12,469 nt of DNA. Source: Promethearchaeia archaeon. Its GTDB lineage: Archaea > Asgardarchaeota > Lokiarchaeia > Sigyniarchaeales > SOKP01. Of the stretch, positions 1,694-12,469 are shown one piece after another (the first letter of the stretch is position 1; every line of letters starts with the position of its first letter). The position numbers were made by a program, and so were the translations under genes. The notes below the pieces were generated by a model, which was not told the DNA's origin, made no database searches, and saw only the letters and a program-made list of their open reading frames with translations. The DNA lies in contig JAHQWL010000104.1 in the NCBI GenBank assembly GCA_029856155.1, positions 1 to 12,469 of the forward strand, written 5' to 3'.

Positions 1694-2863
1694 ATGCTTA
1701 TGCAAAAATCAGACTACATTTATATGATAACTGATAATATTATGGTATATCAGATTAATTTACCCACTGATTTTCGCGGAAATAAATTACATGAGCATCT
1801 TAATAGCTACGATGAGAAGTATCTTAGTATAATTGCAGGATTCGATAAAAATTTCTTAGAACACTTCTTAATAATATCAAAGGGAAGAACTCAAGAAGAT
1901 ATTGCTGAAATACTTAGAAAAATGGAAAAAATTTCTCATATGATCGGACCAACAGGAAATTTAAATTATCTTACTCCTAATCAAATCCAATATATCCTCA
2001 CTAAATTAGGTTCACTCAATGTAAACGAAATAAAAGAGGAAAATATTAGCCAAATTGCTGATGAACAAATAGAAAAAGAATTTGGAACCACATACGGCGC
2101 ATCTTCCGCATTAGAACAACAACTTGCTAGTGCAGCATTTTATTTACAATCAATTGGATATAATATTCAAGAGATACAGGAGAAATTCAATGAAGTAAGA
2201 CAAGATCCTTCCAAATTGGATAACTTATTTACCTTACCACCTAAAGAAATTATAAGTGTGCCTATAGAAATCCAAACAAGGGACACTCCTCCATCAAGAA
2301 TTCAACAACCTTCAACAACCCAATCTACCTCTATTGACAGAAACCAACAAACTCAAAATGCCATCGAACAGCATGTAAGATCAATTGAACATGAAATTAC
2401 TGGAGAAAGAGCAAAAAAAGTAGAAGAAATAATGGAACTTATAAAAACACATGTTAAGGAAAATATGAATGAGAGTTATGAAAGAGTTTTTCGCCAAATG
2501 CATCCGGATAGGTTAAATAAAGCTTACAAAATGTTAAAAGATACAAAAAGAAAATCAAAAAGAATGGATCTTTATTTAGAATGGTTCTTCTGCTCAACTC
2601 TCTTATCCAAAATTGAACTGAAAGTAGAACATTGGCAAGTTTCATCACAAGCGGGTCATGGTCAAGCGGGAGTTTATACTGCGGGAATAAATTTCTCTCG
2701 CTATGATAATATTGTACGAGAATTTCCAGATACCAAATTAACAAAAGTAATAAACATTTGTAGGCGATTACTACAAAATCCTACTAAAAATGCAATTCAA
2801 AAACTAGCTACAGACTTGGTAGCTGAAACGGGATTTGATGAACATCTTTATTTTACTGACTAA
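1694..2863 (+). CDS. Hypothetical soluble protein with two helical regions joined by an S/T/Q/P-rich linker; the start may be the ATG at 1742
   Basis: 389-codon ORF fills the gap between flanking genes, and an ORF this long is very unlikely by chance at this AT content. No transmembrane segment and no family recognised. TTTATAT at 1719-1725 could favour the later start. Confidence 0.85.
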   Translation: MLMQKSDYIYMITDNIMVYQINLPTDFRGNKLHEHLNSYDEKYLSIIAGFDKNFLEHFLIISKGRTQEDIAEILRKMEKISHMIGPTGNLNYLTPNQIQYILTKLGSLNVNEIKEENISQIADEQIEKEFGTTYGASSALEQQLASAAFYLQSIGYNIQEIQEKFNEVRQDPSKLDNLFTLPPKEIISVPIEIQTRDTPPSRIQQPSTTQSTSIDRNQQTQNAIEQHVRSIEHEITGERAKKVEEIMELIKTHVKENMNESYERVFRQMHPDRLNKAYKMLKDTKRKSKRMDLYLEWFFCSTLLSKIELKVEHWQVSSQAGHGQAGVYTAGINFSRYDNIVREFPDTKLTKVINICRRLLQNPTKNAIQKLATDLVAETGFDEHLYFTD

Positions 2864-2916: not shown

Positions 2917-4551
2917 TTATAGATAATTATTTCTTTTAAAAACTGTTTTTCCTCTAATTATTGTTTCAAGAACTTGAATATCTCTAACTTTATCACTAGA
3001 GATTTCAAAAGGATTTCTGTCTAATATTACTAAATCTGCTAATTTTCCAACTTCTATACTTCCTTTAATCTTTTCTTCAAATGCCCCATAAGCAGCACTA
3101 ATGGTATACGTTTTTAGCGCCTCTTTCATGGATATACACTGTTCAGGGATAAATCCATTTCTGTTCACTAGTGCGTGGAGTCCTAAAATAGGATTAGGAT
3201 CTTCAATTGGTGCGTCACTTCCGGATATAAGAACAACTCCACCTTCTATAATAGATTTCATAGGGTACGTATATTTGCATCTTTCTTTTCCTAGTCTTTT
3301 CTCAAGCCATTTATATTCTGAATTTATGAAAGGTGGTTGACATGAAGCAATAATCCCATATTTTTTCATATCTTTTATTACATCATTAGTTAACATTGAA
3401 GCATGCTCAATTCTATGTCGATGATTGTCTCTTGGGAATTCTTTTAATAGGCGTTTAAATAAATCCACACAGATCCTATTTCCTTTATCTCCGATTACAT
3501 GAATAGATATTTGAAGTCCATTGTTATGAGCCACTTTCATCTGTTCATAGATTTCATCTTCATCTACTACACAAAATCCGCACATACCAGGGGCATCTGA
3601 AAAAGGTTCCCACATACAAGCAGTCTTAGCTCCAAATGTACCATCGAGGAATAATTTTAAGGAACCAATTTTGAATTTACTATCTTCTTTACCACCGTCC
3701 AGAGGGGGTTTTTTAATTTTAATTATTTTTTTTGGCTTTTCAGTGGCTATAATACCATACCAGTTTTGAAGTATTTTCTCTTGGACAGATTTGAAAAGAG
3801 GTGTTTCAATAGGTCCAAGACTTCCACTTTCACGAGTTTTACCAAGCTGAATAATTCCATGAATAGAAGTAATTCCTTTTTCAGCTAATATTTTAAAAGC
3901 TTTTTCAGTACTTTCTTGAAAAAATTTTAATTCGGGGATGACATATTTATCAATCTTAGAATATATTAACGTTAAAGCATTTTCAGATATAACACCTGTT
4001 AATTCTCCGTTTTCGTTGATTCTGATTTCCCCTCCTTCTGGGATTTTTGTGTTAACGTTAATATCAACTAATTCCAATGCTTTTGAATTAGCAACGCCAA
4101 TATGAGAATCATAACGTAAAAGAAATACTGGATTTTCAGGGCATGCATCATCTAAATCCCATCTTGAGGGCAAAATTGCATTTTTAAAGTTCTCTTCATT
4201 TAAACGCAAACCAAGTATAAATTCTCCTTCACTTTTTCCTTTAGCAGTTTTTCTTAGAATTTTTTTTAACTCTCTTAAACTTCTGACAGAAGAAAGATTT
4301 AGATTAATTGAAAAGAAAACAAAAGACATTGGATGCATATGACAATCAATAAATCCTGGAAGCATTGCTTTTCCTTCTAGGTTAATAAATTTTACATTTT
4401 CCTTCATTTTTCGTTTAACTTCTTCAAGGGTACCTGTAGCTTTAATTTTATCTCCTTCAATGCCTACAGCATCCACAAATGGTTGGTGAGCATTCATTGT
4501 TATAATTGTACCACCAAAGTACACGCTTCTATCTAATTTTTTAGAGGACAT
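2917..4551 (-). CDS. Metal-dependent amidohydrolase, YtcJ-like (Amidohydro_3)
   Basis: PGFIDCHMH (HxH metal motif), KLFLDG, IHVIGDKG, RHRIEHAS, SGSDAP and the C-terminal KGSIEVGKLADLVILD. Confidence 0.95.
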   Translation of the reverse strand: MSSKKLDRSVYFGGTIITMNAHQPFVDAVGIEGDKIKATGTLEEVKRKMKENVKFINLEGKAMLPGFIDCHMHPMSFVFFSINLNLSSVRSLRELKKILRKTAKGKSEGEFILGLRLNEENFKNAILPSRWDLDDACPENPVFLLRYDSHIGVANSKALELVDINVNTKIPEGGEIRINENGELTGVISENALTLIYSKIDKYVIPELKFFQESTEKAFKILAEKGITSIHGIIQLGKTRESGSLGPIETPLFKSVQEKILQNWYGIIATEKPKKIIKIKKPPLDGGKEDSKFKIGSLKLFLDGTFGAKTACMWEPFSDAPGMCGFCVVDEDEIYEQMKVAHNNGLQISIHVIGDKGNRICVDLFKRLLKEFPRDNHRHRIEHASMLTNDVIKDMKKYGIIASCQPPFINSEYKWLEKRLGKERCKYTYPMKSIIEGGVVLISGSDAPIEDPNPILGLHALVNRNGFIPEQCISMKEALKTYTISAAYGAFEEKIKGSIEVGKLADLVILDRNPFEISSDKVRDIQVLETIIRGKTVFKRNNYL

Positions 4552-4703: not shown

Positions 4704-5084
4704 TTAATAAATCATAACGTAAGAGTATAACATTAGTATTACTAATCCAAATATTGCTACACCCGAAGCCAAAATCATCCCTTTTCTAACATTATCTGAA
4801 AGTGTTCTGTCCGTCAAACCACCGATAAAAAATGAAAATATAAATAAGGCGAACCCAATTTGTAAGAAGAGTCTCGAAATCGATAAGAAAATCCTCATTA
4901 AATTTATGTAATTATTATATCCTACATCCGAATAGTCGGGTCTAGGAATAATACCGAACAGAGAGGATATTATAAATCCAACTATTATTAATATAATACC
5001 TACAGTAAAGATCTTTATATACCCTTTCTTTAAAAGAGGTTCTCGATATGATTCTATTGAATTTGCATCTGTAATAGAATTCAC
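4704..5084 (-). CDS. Small hypothetical membrane protein (about 3 TM helices), GTG start
   Basis: 126-aa ORF with three hydrophobic segments (IFTVGIILIIVGFIISSLFGII; LFLQIGFALFIFSFFIGGL; MILASGVAIFGLVILMLYSYVMIY); fills the intergenic gap. Confidence 0.75.
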   Translation of the reverse strand: MNSITDANSIESYREPLLKKGYIKIFTVGIILIIVGFIISSLFGIIPRPDYSDVGYNNYINLMRIFLSISRLFLQIGFALFIFSFFIGGLTDRTLSDNVRKGMILASGVAIFGLVILMLYSYVMIY

Positions 5085-5229: not shown

Positions 5230-5808
5230 CTATTTTCTTTTTAGTCTTAATTCTATTGATTTGTCTTTAGCTGACTTAGTAAGATTTTCTCGGAGTATCT
5301 TTGATTTGATTTTTATGTCTGTCTTATTTATTTCCTTATCTTTAATATGCTTTATACTCTCTTCTAATGACTTTTCTAAATCTTCGACTGAAAGTAGAGC
5401 AGCAGCAATGCAATAAAAGCTCTTAGACCTACCTTCATTAAAGTTTTCTAACATTCTCTCAAGAAATTCAATTCTTTTCTGTTGTTGAGATAAAAATTCT
5501 TCTAATCCCTTGTCCTTAATTAATTTTAAGTTTGTAAGTGAAACTTTATGAGATATAAAGGAATCAAATTTATCCCATTTATCTATTTTTGAGCATGGAA
5601 ATTCCTTACACTCTGCACAGGTCTCAAAGTTGTGCTGTTTTACACAACATGTAATTATTGAACATGATGGATACTTATTAATAAAGTCAGGACCACAACA
5701 ACCAGGACATCTTGATGGTCCTTTAGTATAATACATTGGACATAACCCACAATCTAATCCACAGCAAGCGACTGTAGGATATCTCTTGATTGGGTATTTA
5801 TTAGACAT
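5230..5808 (-). CDS. DUF3795-type cysteine-rich, probably metal-binding protein
   Basis: Cys pattern ACCGLDCGLC...CPGC...CSIITCC...ETCAECKEFPC is characteristic of DUF3795; helical C-terminal extension with GRSKSFYC. Confidence 0.85.
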   Translation of the reverse strand: MSNKYPIKRYPTVACCGLDCGLCPMYYTKGPSRCPGCCGPDFINKYPSCSIITCCVKQHNFETCAECKEFPCSKIDKWDKFDSFISHKVSLTNLKLIKDKGLEEFLSQQQKRIEFLERMLENFNEGRSKSFYCIAAALLSVEDLEKSLEESIKHIKDKEINKTDIKIKSKILRENLTKSAKDKSIELRLKRK

Positions 5809-5941: not shown

Positions 5942-8284
5942 ATGAAAGCATCACTTTTGAAAAAATTAAATCTAATAATTGAAGAAGCTAATGCTTTAAA
6001 AGATGAAAATAAATTCCAGAAAGCAATTCAAAAGTTTCAAGAAGCATTACATTTTATAGGCGATAAAGTTAAAGACCCAGAAGATAAAAAAACAGAAATT
6101 GAAAATATAAAAGATGCTATTAACCAAACTTATTCTGTTCAAGTTGATGGAATAGTCACACAAGCGATACATTTGACGGCACAAAAAAAGTTTAATAAAG
6201 CGAAAGATGAGTTTCAAAATGCTCTTCAAGTTTGTGATAATATAGATGATCCTGATCTTCAAAAAGCCGAAAAAGATGAAATTAATAAACTAATTGGTGA
6301 AAATGAAATAGAAAAGTTATTAGTAAGAGGACTTGAATTAAAAAATCAGAATAATCTAGATGAAGCTGTTGAGATATTTAAAAAGGGATTTGAAATTGCA
6401 GAGAAGACATATGATTCAAATTTTGGACCTGAAGCTTTATTCAGAATTAAAAAAGAGATTACGATAATTTATGATTCGCAAATTGATGAGATTGTTGAAC
6501 AAGGCAAAAAGTTCAAACAAGAGGGTCAAATCGATAATGCTATTAAAACCTTTGAAGAAGCGTTGCAAACTATTGAAAAGTTCTTTGACCCTGAAGAAAA
6601 GAAATCACAAATTATTACTGTTAAAAATTTGACTAATGAAATATATTCTAATCAAATTAAACCTTTAGTGGAGAAAGGAAAAGATTTATTAAACCAAAAT
6701 TTAACCGAACAAGCTAATTCTGAACTTAAGAATGCTATCTCTTTAGCAACCAAAATGTATGATTCAGATCTTAAAAACCTTGAAATTAGTCTAATTGCTG
6801 AAGTTTTAAATCCAATTTATCTTGAAAGTATTAAACCATTAGTAGAAAAAGGAAATCATATAACCCAACAAGAAAAGTTTGAAGAGTCAGTAAATTCCAT
6901 TAATGATGCAGTGGATTTATTCCGAAAAAGTCTTGATATTGCTCAAACAATGGTAAGATCAGAAAGAAAAGCTAAAAAAATTAAAGAGATTAGTGATCTA
7001 ATCAATAATGCTTGCATTTCAGGAATAAATATAATCAAAAATAATTCTATTCAATCTATTGTCCAGAAGAAATATGATGAAGCGATAAGTGATTTATATA
7101 TTGCTTTAAGTTTAGCTAAAAGAATGGTGTATCCTGAAGAGGAAAACCCGGAGTTGGAAAATCTTAAAAATTTAGTCAACAAGGTTTATTCTGCCGAGGT
7201 CAAAGAGGTTGTAGATAAAGGAAATAAATTAGTAGAACAAAAAGATTATGAAAAAGCAATAAAAACTTACAATCAAGCATTAACAATGACAAATAAAATG
7301 TATTTAACAAGCGAGATGGAAAAAGAAATCGCTTTGATAAAAAGTTTAATATATGAGACTGAAGTAAAACAATTAGTTGTAAAGGGGGAACTATCAGAAG
7401 AGCAAAAGTTAAAAGAAAAAGAGATCGAGAAACTCAAAAAACGTTTAGATTATGCCCAATCCATTGATGATCCAGGTCGAAGAGCTACAGAAATGAGTAA
7501 AATTAAAAAATTAATTGATGATGTTCATTCTGAAGAAATCAAGTTGTTAATCGAGCAGGGAAATCAGCTCGCCGATTTAAAAAAATACGATGATGCCTTC
7601 AAATTTTATGAAAAAGCGTTAAAAGTCAATGAATTGATGGAAGCCCCAGATGTTAAAAATAAAGATTTAATAAAAAGATCTTATGAAAAAGAACTTATTA
7701 ATAGAGCGAAATTAGAAATTGAGAATAAGAATTATGATAATGCCATTGAATACTGTAAAAGAGCTTTAGATCTTAATGAGATATTTGTTGAGGCATATTA
7801 TCATATAGGGCTTGCTTATAGTCATAAGAAAAAATATGATGTGGCAATTGAAAATTTTCAACGAGCTGTTGATTTTGATAAAAAACATGTAAATTCTTGG
7901 AACTCAATGGGATTAGCATATGAAGCAAAAGAAGATTATGATAATGCTCTTAAGTATTTAAATAATACAATAGAGATTGATCCTAGCTTTACTGAGGGAT
8001 GGTATAATCTAGGAAATGTATATAAACTAAGAAAAGAATACAATAAAGCAATAGAGAGCTATAATAAAGCAACGGAAGTAAACTCAGAATTCGCCCTAGC
8101 TTGGTTCTTTATGGGTTGTACTTATTTTGATAAGAAAGATTATAATAAAGGACTTGAATATCTTGAAAAAGCAATCAAAACCGATCCAAATTTAGGCCAA
8201 GAAGTCCATCCGCTTATAAAAGATATGAATAACGCAATTGAAAAACTTCAAGAATCACTTTCATTGCGTTTTATTAATAGATAA
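5942..8284 (+). CDS. Tetratricopeptide/helical-repeat protein: about ten 55-65-aa helical repeats followed by about five canonical TPRs
   Basis: C-terminal 34-aa TPRs (AYYHIGLAY, SWNSMGLAY, GWYNLGNVY, AWFFMGCTY). N-terminal units are anchored on a [LIV][VIL]xx[GA] motif at aa 12, 71, 126, 184, 242, 300, 423, 478 and 536. Confidence 0.92.
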   Translation: MKASLLKKLNLIIEEANALKDENKFQKAIQKFQEALHFIGDKVKDPEDKKTEIENIKDAINQTYSVQVDGIVTQAIHLTAQKKFNKAKDEFQNALQVCDNIDDPDLQKAEKDEINKLIGENEIEKLLVRGLELKNQNNLDEAVEIFKKGFEIAEKTYDSNFGPEALFRIKKEITIIYDSQIDEIVEQGKKFKQEGQIDNAIKTFEEALQTIEKFFDPEEKKSQIITVKNLTNEIYSNQIKPLVEKGKDLLNQNLTEQANSELKNAISLATKMYDSDLKNLEISLIAEVLNPIYLESIKPLVEKGNHITQQEKFEESVNSINDAVDLFRKSLDIAQTMVRSERKAKKIKEISDLINNACISGINIIKNNSIQSIVQKKYDEAISDLYIALSLAKRMVYPEEENPELENLKNLVNKVYSAEVKEVVDKGNKLVEQKDYEKAIKTYNQALTMTNKMYLTSEMEKEIALIKSLIYETEVKQLVVKGELSEEQKLKEKEIEKLKKRLDYAQSIDDPGRRATEMSKIKKLIDDVHSEEIKLLIEQGNQLADLKKYDDAFKFYEKALKVNELMEAPDVKNKDLIKRSYEKELINRAKLEIENKNYDNAIEYCKRALDLNEIFVEAYYHIGLAYSHKKKYDVAIENFQRAVDFDKKHVNSWNSMGLAYEAKEDYDNALKYLNNTIEIDPSFTEGWYNLGNVYKLRKEYNKAIESYNKATEVNSEFALAWFFMGCTYFDKKDYNKGLEYLEKAIKTDPNLGQEVHPLIKDMNNAIEKLQESLSLRFINR

Positions 8285-8450: not shown

Positions 8451-10064
8451 TTATTCGATTTTCTTTAAGTGTCTTAAACCCATTAAGAATATGGGAAGAG
8501 ATATTGCAAGATGTATAGAAATGAACAATATAGAAGGTGTTAAGTCCCAAGTAGTGATTTCAGGAAATTTTTCGCTCAACCAAACCATTAAGAATATAAA
8601 ACCCGTAAGTACCCCCATTTGGATGCTTATAATTTTAAACATATTCAATCCCATGTGTTTTCCTTTTTCTTCGAATGCGGGACTAAATCCTTGTATTCCA
8701 ATTGCTTCAATCAGTACCAGTGTTCCATACGATAAGTAAGCTATGAGAAAAACAACCACGTAAAACGCATCAAATTTAAAAAGGATAGTAGAGAATATTG
8801 TTACAACTACAGCTAATATTGTATTGATAATTAACATCGCTATAATGTAGGAATAAACCAGACTGTTTACATTTCTTGGACTACGTTTATACACCCATAA
8901 CAAGTCTTTACTCCCTACAAAGATGAAATTCCCTAGCATAATCCCATAAAGCAGTCCACCCATGAACAATACCATCATTATTTTAAATCCTCCTGATATG
9001 AAATCATTAGCAGCTCCACTTACAGAAAATGAAAAAATTAATCCATAAACGCAAGTTATACCACCCAAATATACTAATTTTGAGATATTTTCTTTTTTCC
9101 GAAAAAACTGTTTTAATTGGGTGATAACTAACCCCTCCCATTTTGAGCCCATAATGCGTCTATTAAATTTGTAGAATACATTTTCATTTTCTATAGTTGA
9201 TCTAGCCTTCTCAACTCCTCCCTCAAGCGTGTAAAATCTATCCGCTCCTTTATAAGAAAAATATAAGATTATTACAGGTACAAGAATAGCAAGCGTTAAA
9301 CTCGTCCAAATATTTAAGATATAGGTGTTTAATAATGTGGTATCGAAGGTATAGAGGATAATATTAGAGAACCATAGAGCTGGATACCACATAAGATAAT
9401 TCTTCAGTTCTGGATGTTCCATGATGAATTGGAACCCAAACTGTAAAGTGTAGATAAGTGCAACCATTCCAATTGATAGGAGTATTAACAATGCTTTAGC
9501 AATGTCTCGTGCTTTTTCACTCTGAGCAATTTTATGTTCGATCCAACTCATTATTATGGTACCAATTAAGGTTGCCAGAAATACAAGCCCAAATACACAC
9601 CCATAAATTACTAAGGTTTGTACAAACGTCAAGTTAAAAATTGGATTCAACATGTTTACCAAGATAGGTGTAAGAGCAAACACGTAAGAGAAAAGTATGG
9701 GTATCTTTCCTAAGAACTCTCCCAAAAAGATATCCCCTGCTGTGGTTGGGGATGCCAACAGGATTTCTTTAAACCCTATCTCGGTCTGACGATATATATT
9801 ATTTAGAGGATAAATCATAATCATAATAAAAAATATCATCATCAACTGTTCAATAATCATCGCAATGGAGGGGATTAAAACCTGAGAAATCTCCTCCATC
9901 CCCACTAATGTCGGCATAAACAGGTCAAAAATCAAGGGACATAGATAGAACGCCCAAAAAATAAGGAAAGAATATAACACTAAGAAAAATGCTAACCGAT
10001 TCTTGCGAAATTTAGAGGTCCTAACCCTCATTTCATTCTTAGCAATTTTCATCCATCGAGTCAT
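8451..10064 (-). CDS. ABC exporter permease (large ABC-2-like, about 12 or more TM helices in two halves)
   Basis: Highly hydrophobic 537 aa. IAKNEMR at the N-terminus and ILLASPTTAGDIFLGEFLG resemble the ABC-2 permease loop motif, and the second half echoes it (KRSPRNVNSLV). Starts 6 nt after the ATPase stop. Confidence 0.85.
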   Translation of the reverse strand: MTRWMKIAKNEMRVRTSKFRKNRLAFFLVLYSFLIFWAFYLCPLIFDLFMPTLVGMEEISQVLIPSIAMIIEQLMMIFFIMIMIYPLNNIYRQTEIGFKEILLASPTTAGDIFLGEFLGKIPILFSYVFALTPILVNMLNPIFNLTFVQTLVIYGCVFGLVFLATLIGTIIMSWIEHKIAQSEKARDIAKALLILLSIGMVALIYTLQFGFQFIMEHPELKNYLMWYPALWFSNIILYTFDTTLLNTYILNIWTSLTLAILVPVIILYFSYKGADRFYTLEGGVEKARSTIENENVFYKFNRRIMGSKWEGLVITQLKQFFRKKENISKLVYLGGITCVYGLIFSFSVSGAANDFISGGFKIMMVLFMGGLLYGIMLGNFIFVGSKDLLWVYKRSPRNVNSLVYSYIIAMLIINTILAVVVTIFSTILFKFDAFYVVVFLIAYLSYGTLVLIEAIGIQGFSPAFEEKGKHMGLNMFKIISIQMGVLTGFIFLMVWLSEKFPEITTWDLTPSILFISIHLAISLPIFLMGLRHLKKIE

Positions 10065-10070
10065 ATTATA

Positions 10071-10886
10071 TCACTTCCTTTTCTTTTTTGTTTTTTTATT
10101 GAGATTTGCACCATTTGGACCATTTTCACGCCAGGATAATAAATCCTCTATATGAGTTGTTCCCATAATTTTGAGATATGCATCCTCTAAGTCTTTTGCA
10201 TTTTGAGATTCTATAATTTCTTTAGGGCTACCTTGTAATTTCAATTCTCCTTTATCGATAATTCCTATAATATCACAGAGTTCTTCAGCTGCATCAAGCA
10301 GATGAGTACACATAAAAATTGTTTTATCTGCTTTCTTAGCCAAATCAGAAATGAGATCCTTAACCATTCTCGCTGCTGCAGGATCTAAATTTGACGTAGG
10401 CTCATCCAAAAAAATAATCTTGGGATCCTGAATTAATGCTGCACACAAACATACTTTTTGCTTCATACCACGAGAATATCCTTCAAGCAAGTCGTTCTCT
10501 CGTCCCTCAAGATCGAATATATCAAGGAGCTCATCAATACGACTAGATATAGTTGCTTTCGGTAAATAGTACAGCTCGCCAATGAATTCCAAGAACTCTT
10601 TAGCAGTTAATTTTGAATATAATCCGGGTGATTCTGGTAAAAATCCACAGATCATCTTCACATCCTTGGTTTGGGTGAGAATATTATACCCCCCTACTAA
10701 TGCTGTACCATTTGAGGGAGAAATAATACCATTTAACATCCTGACGGTTGTAGTTTTTCCTGCTCCATTTGGCCCTAATAGACCATAGGTAGTACCATAT
10801 GTAATCTCAATATTTAAGTCTTTTACAGCTACAATATCACCAAAAATTTTTGTGAGATCTTTGGTTGCTATTGCCAATTTTTCCAT
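10071..10886 (-). CDS. ABC transporter ATP-binding protein (ABC-2 / drug-resistance exporter type, NatA/CcmA-like)
   Basis: Walker A GPNGAGKTT, signature YSRGMKQK, Walker B IIFLDEP and H-loop CTH. Confidence 0.97.
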   Translation of the reverse strand: MEKLAIATKDLTKIFGDIVAVKDLNIEITYGTTYGLLGPNGAGKTTTVRMLNGIISPSNGTALVGGYNILTQTKDVKMICGFLPESPGLYSKLTAKEFLEFIGELYYLPKATISSRIDELLDIFDLEGRENDLLEGYSRGMKQKVCLCAALIQDPKIIFLDEPTSNLDPAAARMVKDLISDLAKKADKTIFMCTHLLDAAEELCDIIGIIDKGELKLQGSPKEIIESQNAKDLEDAYLKIMGTTHIEDLLSWRENGPNGANLNKKTKKKRK

Positions 10887-10897
10887 TTTGTTTTTTA

Positions 10898-10905
10898 CAC
10901 TTCCT
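10898..10905 (-). promoter_or_regulatory. Purine-rich RBS candidate AGGAAGTG upstream of the ATPase; the same 8-mer precedes the permease (10072-10079)
   Basis: An identical 8-mer lies 11 nt and 7 nt upstream of consecutive start codons. Confidence 0.45.
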
Positions 10906-10910
10906 ACTTT

Positions 10911-10938
10911 TTTATTTTGTTTTATTTTGTTTTATTTT
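10911..10938. repeat. Short tandem repeat (TTTATTTTGT)x2.8
   Basis: tttattttgt tttattttgt tttatttt, read directly between the XRE gene and the ATPase. Confidence 0.6.
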
Positions 10939-10947
10939 TATATATTT

Positions 10948-11376
10948 TTAATTTTCAACTTCTTTCTCGAATAAATCCTCAATCTCTACTCCTAGAGCTT
11001 CAGAAATATTATACAATTCTTTTTCATTAAAAATTTCTAATAACTCCTCTTCATCCAAATTTTTTAATTTAATTATTCGTTTAGTATTTATGCCCGTTTT
11101 TACTGAAATTTTTTCTATTTCATCAAGAGTTTTACCCCCTAATAAATCTTCAATAACAGGTTCTTGATAAAAAATTTTTTCCAATGGTTTCTCAAAAATT
11201 TCGGTAAGTTTAAAGGATAACGTTAAAGAAGGGTTGTAATCCCCTTTCTCTAGGTAATAAATTGTCTGGCGGGAAACACCTACTTTATCAGCTAACTGCT
11301 GCTGAGTTAAGCCTAGCTCTTCTCTATAATCTCTAACATTTGATTTAATTCTTTTTATAAATTTCAGATGCTTCAC
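10948..11376 (-). CDS. XRE/Cro-family (HTH_3, COG1476-like) transcriptional regulator with a second degenerate HTH-like domain; GTG start
   Basis: N-terminal VRDYREELGLTQQQLADKVGVSRQTIYYLEKGDYNPSL; the C-terminal half ends in LYNISEALGVEIEDLF. Confidence 0.93.
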   Translation of the reverse strand: MKHLKFIKRIKSNVRDYREELGLTQQQLADKVGVSRQTIYYLEKGDYNPSLTLSFKLTEIFEKPLEKIFYQEPVIEDLLGGKTLDEIEKISVKTGINTKRIIKLKNLDEEELLEIFNEKELYNISEALGVEIEDLFEKEVEN

Positions 11377-11387
11377 ACCAAAATTAT

Positions 11388-11405
11388 TTTAAACTTGAGT
11401 TTAAA
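11388..11405. promoter_or_regulatory. Palindrome TTTAAACT-TG-AGTTTAAA overlapping a TATA-like element for the XRE gene; operator candidate
   Basis: Perfect 8-bp arms. Minus-strand TTTAAA (11405-11400) is 24-29 nt upstream of the GTG. Confidence 0.5.
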
Positions 11406-11417
11406 CATTAAATAATT

Positions 11418-11428
11418 AAAAAAAAAAA
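11418..11428 (-). terminator. Oligo-T terminator candidate (T11 on the minus strand) after the PH-XRE gene
   Basis: A11 run on the plus strand, 6 nt past the stop at 11435. Confidence 0.55.
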
Positions 11429-11434
11429 GAATTT

Positions 11435-12262
11435 TTATGCTAATTTAAATAGATCCTCAACCTTACACTTTAAAACTTCTGCTATTTTGAAAGCTAATGC
11501 TAAACTTGGATTATATCGGCCTTCTTCTAAATAATTTATAGTTTGAATTGGAACCCCAACTTTTTCAGCCAAAACTGCAGCGCTCATATTAATATTTTCT
11601 CTTTTTTCTTTTATTGTTGTTTTTAAATATTCTCCTTCTCGCATTTTCGAAAGAATGTAGCTAATAAAGTTATCAAAAGCAATTTCTTCAGGTTTAAAGA
11701 TTTTATCTTCTAAACCGCTTGGAATTGTAGAATATTTGGTTAACCTATCTTTTATCTTCTCCTCGATGATATTGGGCTCTAATAATCCTGGAATATAACC
11801 TTCTGGGCGAACAACACCTCCTTTAGCACCTGCTGCTGCCGCTGCAGATCCTGCAGTCTCAACTTTAACGGTATATGTTTTAAACATTCTATCAAAGACT
11901 CCATTGGTTATATTTATGTTTTGAATTCTGCTATGTGGGATAGTCGCTCTCACTCTATTAAAAACTCCATGTTGAATTATGAGATCACTTTCTAATACTT
12001 CAAAGGAGAACATCTTGACATATCGGTAAGAATACCAGATTGTAGACAATAACACAACTATAAATGGGATCACCACTGAATAAAAAAGTATCCATAAAAT
12101 CCAGTTAAATTGGGATATTTCTTCAAAAAAGAACAAAATCCAAAACGTTAAGATCATCCAAGATGCATAAAACAAAAAATAACCAATAATGGTTTTAAAA
12201 ATCTGTTTCTTCGCATAATTACGAGAGATAGTTCCTTTATACATTGGATCACGTTTACTCAT
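11435..12262 (-). CDS. Membrane-anchored bacterial-type PH domain (bPH_2, YdbS-like) fused to a C-terminal XRE helix-turn-helix domain
   Basis: Two TM helices (aa ~24-46 and ~53-78). The bPH_2 pattern LIIQHGVFNRVRATIPHSRIQNINITNGVFDRMFKTYTVKVETAG...IPGL spans aa ~85-172. The XRE domain IKEKRENINMSAAVLAEKVGVPIQTINYLEEGRYNPSLALAFKIAEVLKCKVEDLF spans aa ~217-272. Confidence 0.9.
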   Translation of the reverse strand: MSKRDPMYKGTISRNYAKKQIFKTIIGYFLFYASWMILTFWILFFFEEISQFNWILWILFYSVVIPFIVVLLSTIWYSYRYVKMFSFEVLESDLIIQHGVFNRVRATIPHSRIQNINITNGVFDRMFKTYTVKVETAGSAAAAAGAKGGVVRPEGYIPGLLEPNIIEEKIKDRLTKYSTIPSGLEDKIFKPEEIAFDNFISYILSKMREGEYLKTTIKEKRENINMSAAVLAEKVGVPIQTINYLEEGRYNPSLALAFKIAEVLKCKVEDLFKLA

Positions 12263-12270
12263 TTTATTTA

Positions 12271-12276
12271 TCCTCC
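12271..12276 (-). promoter_or_regulatory. Shine-Dalgarno-like GGAGGA for the PH-XRE gene
   Basis: tcctcc on the plus strand, 8 nt upstream of the ATG at 12262. Confidence 0.6.
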
Positions 12277-12373
12277 ATTTTTATATTATTTTTTAATTTA
12301 TGTAAACTTTAATTATACTAAATTTTTGATATTTTAAATCTTGAAACATAATATTTTGAAAATTAGTTTCATT

Positions 12374-12392
12374 ATGTAATGTTTATTTACAT
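12374..12392. promoter_or_regulatory. Inverted repeat ATGTAA-N7-TTACAT; operator candidate upstream of the PH-XRE gene
   Basis: Perfect 6-bp arms at 12374-12379 and 12387-12392; a degenerate copy ATGTAA-N7-TTATAC lies at 12300-12318. Confidence 0.4.
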
Positions 12393-12469
12393 TCGTATTT
12401 AAATCTATCTATAAAAATTCGAAAATGTAGCATAATAGTATTATTTTTGTAATTGGATGAATGTTAAGT

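Follow-up and report, generated by a model that had tools for sequence, protein, structure and literature searches.

A bPH_2-XRE membrane protein and its soluble XRE partner as a probable Lokiarchaeia-specific, kinase-free regulatory module tied to ABC exporters

The window analysed here is a whole contig (C104) of 12,469 bp from a genome of 4.1 Mb in 104 contigs, and its nearest relatives are metagenome-assembled genomes (MAGs) named Promethearchaeota (Lokiarchaeia-type Asgard archaea). Four genes on its minus strand, called A to D below, encode a membrane-tethered protein with a bPH_2 domain and an XRE-type helix-turn-helix (HTH), a soluble XRE protein, an ABC ATPase and a permease. From gene order and from an operator that recurs directly behind the TATA box of A operons and of ABC exporter operons, it appears probable that A and B form a Lokiarchaeia-specific, kinase-free regulatory module that acts on this operator and is tied to exporters of the ABC-2/12-transmembrane (12-TM) kind. 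An original prediction made from this DNA had described four co-oriented genes with gaps of 58, 61 and 6 bp, and the open reading frames (ORFs) give exactly 58, 61 and 6 nt on the minus strand:

11435..12262, minus strand: gene A, membrane-tethered PH-XRE protein of 275 amino acids (aa) (ORF, Pfam, homologues, AlphaFold2 (AF2))
10948..11376, minus strand: gene B, soluble XRE protein of 142 aa with a GTG start (ORF, Pfam)
10071..10886, minus strand: gene C, DrrA-like ABC ATPase of 271 aa (ORF, Pfam/NCBIfam)
8451..10064, minus strand: gene D, ~12-TM permease, probably of the 12TM_1/ABC-2 kind, 537 aa (ORF, hydropathy, Atlas neighbours)

The order of domains and functions given at that time, namely 2TM-bPH_2-XRE, XRE, ABC ATPase and ~12-TM permease, is borne out by Pfam, AF2 and hydropathy. 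In protein A, Pfam finds bPH_2 (PF03703) at residues 84-141 with 56.9 bits against a cutoff of 22, and HTH_3 (PF01381) at residues 217-271 with 51 bits. The AF2 model (pLDDT 77) places two long TM helices, at residues 15-45 and 52-84, ahead of a PH-type sandwich (strands at 86-160 and a C-terminal helix at 163-178) and a five-helix HTH at 217-271. The protein is divided as follows:

12011..12220, minus strand: residues 15-84, two-helix TM hairpin, variable in sequence, with an outside loop of ~7 residues (AF2, hydropathy, orthologue alignment)
11729..12007, minus strand: residues 86-178, bPH_2 domain, cytoplasmic, into which a Gly/Ala-rich loop is inserted at 140-151 (Pfam PF03703, AF2)
11630..11728, minus strand: residues 179-211, near-invariant linker (IPSGLEDKIFKPEE.AFDNFISYILSKMREGE) (invariant alignment columns, AF2)
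11450..11614, minus strand: residues 217-271, CylR2-like HTH_3 with P-I-Q-T replacing the canonical S-R-Q-T (Pfam, phmmer, alignment)

Both termini of A are predicted to be cytoplasmic (N-in/C-in) because of the charge distribution: read from the sequence, the N-terminus and the segment after the second TM helix are rich in Lys and Arg, and the 7-residue loop is acidic. Since so little of the protein would be exposed outside, any sensing would take place inside the membrane or else in the cytoplasm, perhaps at a transporter. The hairpin varies among the aligned orthologues, and hardly any change is seen in the PH domain, linker and HTH. The linker has pLDDT values below 50 at residues 180-194 and a helix at 191-209; because it is invariant yet unplaced by AF2, it is a candidate partner-binding segment, and the model together with its conservation suggests that it binds a partner.

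Protein B is matched by HTH_3 (PF01381) at residues 14-67 with 67.9 bits. Its AF2 model (pLDDT 92) consists of the HTH at 14-68 (11337..11173), a beta strand at 69-73 and a second five-helix domain at 74-135 (11157..10972), which in the model resembles a degenerate HTH. Among solved structures, the HTHs of both A and B have their best relatives, by Foldseek and phmmer, in DR_2454 (52% identity) and CylR2 (44% identity). In phmmer searches against PDB, DR_2454 was matched at 5e-12 by B and 1.7e-10 by A, and CylR2 at 3e-9 and 1.5e-8, respectively; the Foldseek TM value of the CylR2-like HTH match is ~0.87 over the target. At the start of the recognition helix B keeps S-R-Q-T, in which R36, Q37 and T38 are invariant and S-R is common to B, CylR2 and DR_2454. 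The corresponding P-I-Q-T of A is invariant across the main clade, which includes the window, and deep-branching A proteins have T/S-R-Q-T.

The fusion in A has 444 homologues, and the best 120 of these 444 all carry PF03703 together with PF01381. An exhaustive phmmer search gave 26 clusters (50% identity) at E <1e-30. Among 400 genomes of the phylum, the full-length fusion occurs only in the window's class, in 88/134, 12/14, 3/4 and 2/2 genomes of families f1, f3, f4 and f7, and the other classes gave partial matches only, either HTH-only or PH-only. One member of the fusion family comes from Ca. Lokiarchaeum ossiferum. After this family, the best phmmer matches of A are YdbT-like (~500 aa) and YdbS-like (~180 aa) proteins, which are weaker and partial. 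The earlier worry that the fusion might be an assembly chimera is ruled out, as it is found at full length in most genomes of the class. The window's genome has one copy each of A and B.

Gene order was compared in 74 species-level loci and the window, of which 63 are fully evaluable for ABC linkage. B comes after A on the same strand in essentially all loci that have downstream sequence (74 loci). The arrangement A-B-C-D is found in 29 loci including the window and C-D-A in 2, and in 5 loci an unrelated ABC ATPase and permease stand directly upstream and co-oriented; 27 loci with both flanks evaluable have no ABC gene within 6 kb, and 12 are not fully evaluable. An ABC transporter is thus operonic with A-B in 36/63 fully evaluable loci. 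At least four non-orthologous types of transporter are represented, with 12TM_1-like, ABC2_membrane and ABC2_membrane_3 proteins among the permeases; one permease from the unrelated upstream genes clearly belongs to ABC2_membrane. In the ABC-free loci the neighbours are housekeeping genes, mostly on the opposite strand. On the tree of A, the ABC state requires at least nine changes, with ABC-linked states in all deep clades. The conserved core is the A-B pair, and its ABC partner is frequent, varied and facultative. What had been taken for a four-gene module is therefore constant as regards A-B only, C-D being present in some loci and absent from others. The proposed linkage to exporters itself lies far above chance, both by gene order and by the shared promoter-operator described below.

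In one genome there are further copies of A, of 32-41% identity, again followed by XRE and ABC genes. One of these divergent copies is followed by a 67-aa XRE, a beta-lactamase-family protein, an ATPase and a 12TM_1 permease, and another by an ATPase, a 12-TM protein, an ATPase and an ABC-2 permease. In two genera of a sister family, a beta-lactamase-family (serine hydrolase) protein of ~700 aa is encoded between the small XRE and the ABC genes (L106 6321-8429, L109 6322-8478). A tandem second PH-XRE gene of 40% identity stands between A and B in locus L042 (6896-7789); it has an apparent in-frame stop within the HTH and may be a decaying duplicate.

The consensus operator of the class is a 20-bp palindrome, ATGTWAA-N6-TTWACAT (an operator-bearing duplex sequence is ATGTTAAGTTTATTTAACAT; the window's site has a shorter spacer). 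In AT-rich DNA single palindromes are at chance level, the best inverted repeats upstream of A being equalled by most shuffles, so that only recurrence across genomes is informative. With at most one mismatch and within 200 nt upstream of A, TGTWAA-N5/6-TTWACA was found in 47/66 loci against 6.6 in shuffles (maximum 14). It stands 2-4 nt downstream of a TTTAAATA TATA box, and the composite of TATA box and operator is present in 41/66 loci against 0.125 in shuffles. Where an operon begins with ABC genes, this composite lies ahead of the first of them. Matches to the exact composite number 19 among 161 genomes scanned in the class, against zero for a reversed control. Of these 19, nine lie 31-75 nt ahead of A and eight ahead of an ABC ATPase gene, and the other two are found at a contig end and ahead of an AbrB-like gene. 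At least two of the eight ABC-preceding composites are unlinked to A (G155:C60 and G275:C99), and in a third unlinked operon of ABC genes that bears the operator (G403:C6) the TATA box deviates by one mismatch. One genome contains an additional A'-B' pair, of 35% identity, which likewise has two operators. The core motif occurs seven times in the window's genome, the same as other spacings; being at chance level there, the operator is not a general promoter element.

Only the stricter composite of TATA box and operator is specific. The 20-nt motif alone was rejected as a regulon marker: in 15 genomes its non-self matches (8, against 13 in the control) are at background level, and several lie before unrelated genes, e.g. 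those for an FGGY kinase and a NosD-like protein. A regulon within the window's own genome was also rejected, since the one extended match, before a JAB-domain gene, is probably due to chance; no operator sites were found before the other ABC ATPases of this genome. As further observations on operator-bearing loci, the AbrB-like case (L126 409-739, G264:C98) consists of an 89-aa AbrB/SpoVT-like protein and a methyltransferase behind the composite. One of the operator-headed unlinked operons (L093 59-3460, G401/G275:C99) carries genes for an ABC ATPase and for a membrane protein of 863 aa whose C-terminal part is an Rce1/CPBP protease domain; this family is linked with immunity to bacteriocins. 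In G404, the genome of L056, seven identical copies of ATGTTAATATTATTTAACAT are scattered (L078, L082, L085, L087-L089, L091), one of them between SIR2_2 and GH57 genes; they appear to be copies of a repeated element that imitates the operator.

The promoter of A in the window was aligned with those of 14 clade relatives. The elements around A and B are as follows:

12461..12469, minus strand: right half of a distal operator (ACTTAACAT); in 14 relatives ATGTAAAG-N-TTAACAT occupies this position, ~-215 relative to the A start codon
12396..12403, minus strand: TTTAAATA, the A promoter's TATA box, without variation in 15 clade members
12374..12392, minus strand: operator-like palindrome ATGTAAATAAACATTACAT, conserved at -127 to -132 in the window's clade
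12301..12317, minus strand: degenerate third site TATAAT-N5-TTTACA with a conserved AAAGTTTACA block (clade alignment)
12272..12276, minus strand: GGAGG ribosome-binding site of A, invariant in the alignment
11418..11428, minus strand: T11 run just past the A stop, archaeal terminator-like; a run of at least six T is conserved
11388..11405, minus strand: palindrome before B, TTTAAAC-N4-GTTTAAA, which overlaps a TATA-like element and lacks conservation
10887..10947, minus strand: B-C spacer without a T run, with conserved TAAAAAT.TATAAAAA and GGAAGTG blocks (20 loci)

The window keeps only the right half of the distal operator because the contig ends there, and the missing upstream sequence was sought on the other contigs and not found. 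The degenerate third site may be a second promoter element or a weak operator. Palindromes had been noted before both regulator genes; both are present, but neither is above chance by itself, and only that of A belongs to a conserved motif. The one before B was rejected as an operator, as it is not conserved in relatives of 83-89% identity and operator half-sites are depleted in the A-B spacer. Because the B-C spacer has no T run and has conserved blocks, B, C and D are probably read as one transcript. In a large clade another dyad, ACTCC-N4-6-GAGTAA, is repeatedly seen 10-30 nt ahead of the start codon of B, whether or not ABC genes are present (L006, L007, L009, L015-L018, L022, L024, L041, L043, L051, L057, L073).

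As to the transporter genes, C is matched by ABC_tran with 94.4 bits; with the DrrA subfamily model TIGR01188 of NCBIfam it scores 245 bits, below the cutoff of 312. D has no Pfam or NCBIfam match. It has ~12 hydrophobic segments in two sets of six, and its nearest Atlas clusters are 12TM_1/ABC_tran_2 (0.96-0.98). Its homologue in L042 passes ABC2_membrane_3 (32.3 vs 31.6), the permease of L106 passes 12TM_1 (35.3 vs 33.2), and the match of the D paralogue in the window's own genome is weak. A paralogue of C on contig C98 of the window's genome (L075 4800-4970, G000:C98) is 83% identical and aligned from residue 4 at ~4828, and its first in-frame ATG, GTG or TTG comes only at 4966. Either it has a non-canonical start (ATC or ATT after a GGATGTGA motif) or its N-terminus is damaged.

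The architecture, its conservation, the gene order and the identity and position of the operator are shown by the data above; from them a mechanism can be proposed in which the DNA binder, the sign of regulation and the signal are what we infer. Protein A would be held in the membrane by its N-in/C-in hairpin, with the bPH_2 and CylR2-like XRE domains both in the cytoplasm. The predicted target of A or B is the 20-bp palindrome 2-4 nt past the TATA box, which would place under their control the A operon and, in numerous genomes, operons for ABC exporters, be they linked to A or not. Its position immediately downstream of the TATA box makes the operator most likely a site of repression, since a bound dimer would keep transcription from starting, and blocking initiation just past TATA is a known logic of archaeal repressors. 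B is favoured as the DNA-binding repressor because it keeps S-R-Q-T where main-clade A has P-I-Q-T. That B is the operator-binding repressor, and that A senses a cue and relieves repression by engaging B, is put forward tentatively and may well need revision. The hairpin and PH module of A would then sense the cue within the membrane or at the transporter, A would engage B via its own diverged HTH and the invariant linker, derepression would follow, and the induced exporter would remove the cue. With operator sites before A only, B-C-D of the window would be expressed as a separate or a read-through transcript.

The nature of the cue is a matter of pure inference, and this applies to the "membrane insult" or envelope sensing of the original prediction. 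An elaboration that we consider unlikely is that A uses its hairpin and PH domain to dock on the 12-TM exporter, or to read the state of the lipids nearby, and turns transport load into promoter occupancy via the HTHs of A and B. In Bce-type systems of Firmicutes (BceAB-BceRS), which use a histidine kinase together with a response regulator, the activity of the ABC transporter sets its own expression. If transport load were indeed read by A, the module would amount to a Bce-like flux sensor of archaea that works without phosphorylation; the likeness is one of possible logic, and Bce has a kinase where the module here would be kinase-free.

Several points weigh against the regulatory module as proposed. 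The evidence is computational throughout and comes from MAG sequence alone. The role of the bPH_2 domain is poorly understood. Judging from its P-I, where DNA-binding relatives have S-R, main-clade A may not bind DNA itself. The operator-like palindrome ATGTAAATAAACATTACAT of the window has a spacer one base shorter than the consensus, and one clade has another palindrome or none upstream of A. A further difficulty concerns the exporter of the window itself. No operator or half-site was found before B or C there, half-sites in the A-B spacer are depleted across the set (5/69 loci vs 14.9 in shuffles), and 56/69 loci have at least six T in the 40 nt after the A stop. Operator control of C-D therefore needs read-through or another input, and in the window's arrangement it is indirect at best. 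The C-D paralogues in the window's genome (C98, C23) have no operator and no XRE neighbour, and in most genomes of the 27 ABC-free loci a second operator was not found.

The altered recognition helix of A also bears on whether A might act as a classical one-component TM regulator, with its own HTH binding the operator from the membrane as in BcrR, ToxR and CadC; B would then be an accessory co-repressor or the regulator of another target, e.g. the unrelated dyads before B. Deep-branching A proteins indeed keep T/S-R-Q-T-I, and the deep-branching locus L107 has an operator and ABC genes with no adjacent B. The almost invariant HTH of A across the clade fits a fixed DNA target, and A, with a TM region and a DNA-binding domain both predicted in one protein, falls under the definition of transmembrane transcription regulators (TTRs; PMC10269533). 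However, the main clade including the window has swapped S-R for P-I at the very start of the recognition helix, and B accompanies A in essentially every main-clade locus. On these grounds operator binding by A itself is the less likely reading, though still a serious rival.

It is still less probable that A is an accessory subunit of the exporter, its HTH reporting transporter activity or binding only protein. The XRE-type HTH of RodZ, for example, binds MreB. A short outside loop that excludes external sensing would suit such a role, as would the position of A beside ABC genes in 36/63 loci and the operator-controlled unlinked operon for an ATPase and the 863-aa Rce1/CPBP membrane protein. 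Moreover, bPH_2 membrane proteins (DdE/DdF) work with ABC transporters in the export of enterocin DD14 (PMC8657885). On the other hand, A-B occurs without an adjacent ABC gene in 27 loci, and non-orthologous ABC partners fit a fixed physical partner poorly.

The patchy ABC state raises the question of whether A-B is an autoregulated, self-contained pair unrelated to export, with ABC genes as neighbours by chance or hitch-hiking. At least nine changes of state on the tree of A, the TPR gene directly after A-B in L002, L021 and L023, and the want of an operator before B or C in the window would all agree with this. Nevertheless, A-B is linked to no fewer than four different ABC types, and 8/19 exact composites, some of them unlinked to A, head ABC genes, although ABC ATPases make up less than ~1% of genes (estimated from ~30 tblastn matches in the window's genome); such a coincidence seems very improbable. 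Finally, a mobile defence or toxin-antitoxin module is hardly credible: XRE proteins are common as antitoxins and controllers, but the PADLOC matches are generic (HTH and ATPase) and include no specific defence family, no toxin-like partner is present, and the genes are single-copy, vertically conserved across the class and in stable synteny with housekeeping genes.

If A and B are accordingly regarded as a regulatory module with an operator, several known systems invite comparison. In BcrR the HTH is N-terminal and four TM helices come after it, and there is no PH domain. Like the module here, BcrR-BcrAB(D) of Enterococcus faecalis combines a kinase-free membrane XRE regulator with an ABC operon, according to the passages of PMC10269533 and PMC3968067 that cite it. 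The order in A is the reverse of an N-terminal HTH with C-terminal multi-TM region, and a PH domain is present; the module also differs in its 2TM-bPH_2-linker-HTH layout, its constant soluble XRE partner and its archaeal host. In the cytolysin locus of E. faecalis, CylR1 is a membrane protein and CylR2 a small XRE repressor, for which signalling without a phosphorelay has been proposed, and CylR2 (structures 1utx and 2xiu) is a homodimer that binds an inverted repeat at the promoter (PMC3709268). The combination of a membrane protein with a soluble XRE is shared, as is the CylR2-like HTH. By its description, however, CylR1 is a small protein with three predicted TM helices and no PH domain or HTH, whereas A is a 275-aa 2TM-bPH_2-HTH protein with an HTH of its own. 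B has an extra degenerate HTH-like domain as compared to CylR2, the window contains no lantibiotic genes like those of the operon under CylR1/CylR2 control, and the targets here would be the promoters of ABC exporters and of the module itself, with archaeal TATA architecture.

YdbS/YdbT (sigma-W regulon; PMC3498285) and DdE/DdF (PMC8657885) likewise have a TM hairpin followed by a cytoplasmic bPH_2 domain, and DdE/DdF are needed alongside ABC transporters for leaderless bacteriocin export (PMC8657885). The YdbS type consists of two TM helices and a single bPH_2 domain in about 160-180 aa, and A fits it over its N-terminal 180 residues. Those proteins have no DNA-binding domain, whereas A continues into the near-invariant linker and the HTH_3 domain. 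TTRs such as ToxR, CadC and archaeal motility regulators also unite a TM region and a DNA-binding domain in one polypeptide and are widespread in archaea; the text of this TTR survey, searched by terms, makes no mention of bPH, XRE/HTH_3 or Asgard (PMC10269533). The literature searches did not turn up the layout 2TM-bPH_2-linker-HTH together with its obligatory tandem-HTH partner. The arrangement, of which the original prediction knew no description, is new as a domain architecture, but kinase-free membrane-to-DNA control of ABC or bacteriocin loci by XRE proteins has been described for BcrR, TTRs (PMC10269533) and CylR1/CylR2 (PMC3709268). The novelty is the domain architecture and not the principle: the module extends the membrane-bound one-component regulators and founds no new class.

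Almost nothing is known of gene regulation in Asgard archaea, and here a class-specific regulator pair comes with an exact operator and a promoter geometry. The predicted regulon is small, consisting of the A-B pair itself and ABC-2/12-TM exporters. If the elaboration on transport load, considered unlikely above, were true, this would be the first Lokiarchaeia-specific circuit of transcription factor, operator and regulon that can be tested in cultured strains; the predictions are open to experiment because a member of the fusion family comes from the cultured Ca. Lokiarchaeum ossiferum. In addition, the bPH_2 domain gains a readable output, transcription, which could help to reveal what it senses.

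Among the remaining genes of the window, an ORF of 389 aa (1694-2863, plus strand) has no Pfam match. An Amidohydro_3 gene (2917-4551, minus strand), a gene for a DUF3795 protein (5230-5808, minus strand) and one for a 780-aa TPR protein (5942-8284, plus strand) follow, and their order beside the module is kept in many relatives. In L002, L021 and L023 the TPR gene comes directly after B, so that C-D resembles an insertion or a loss between B and the TPR gene.

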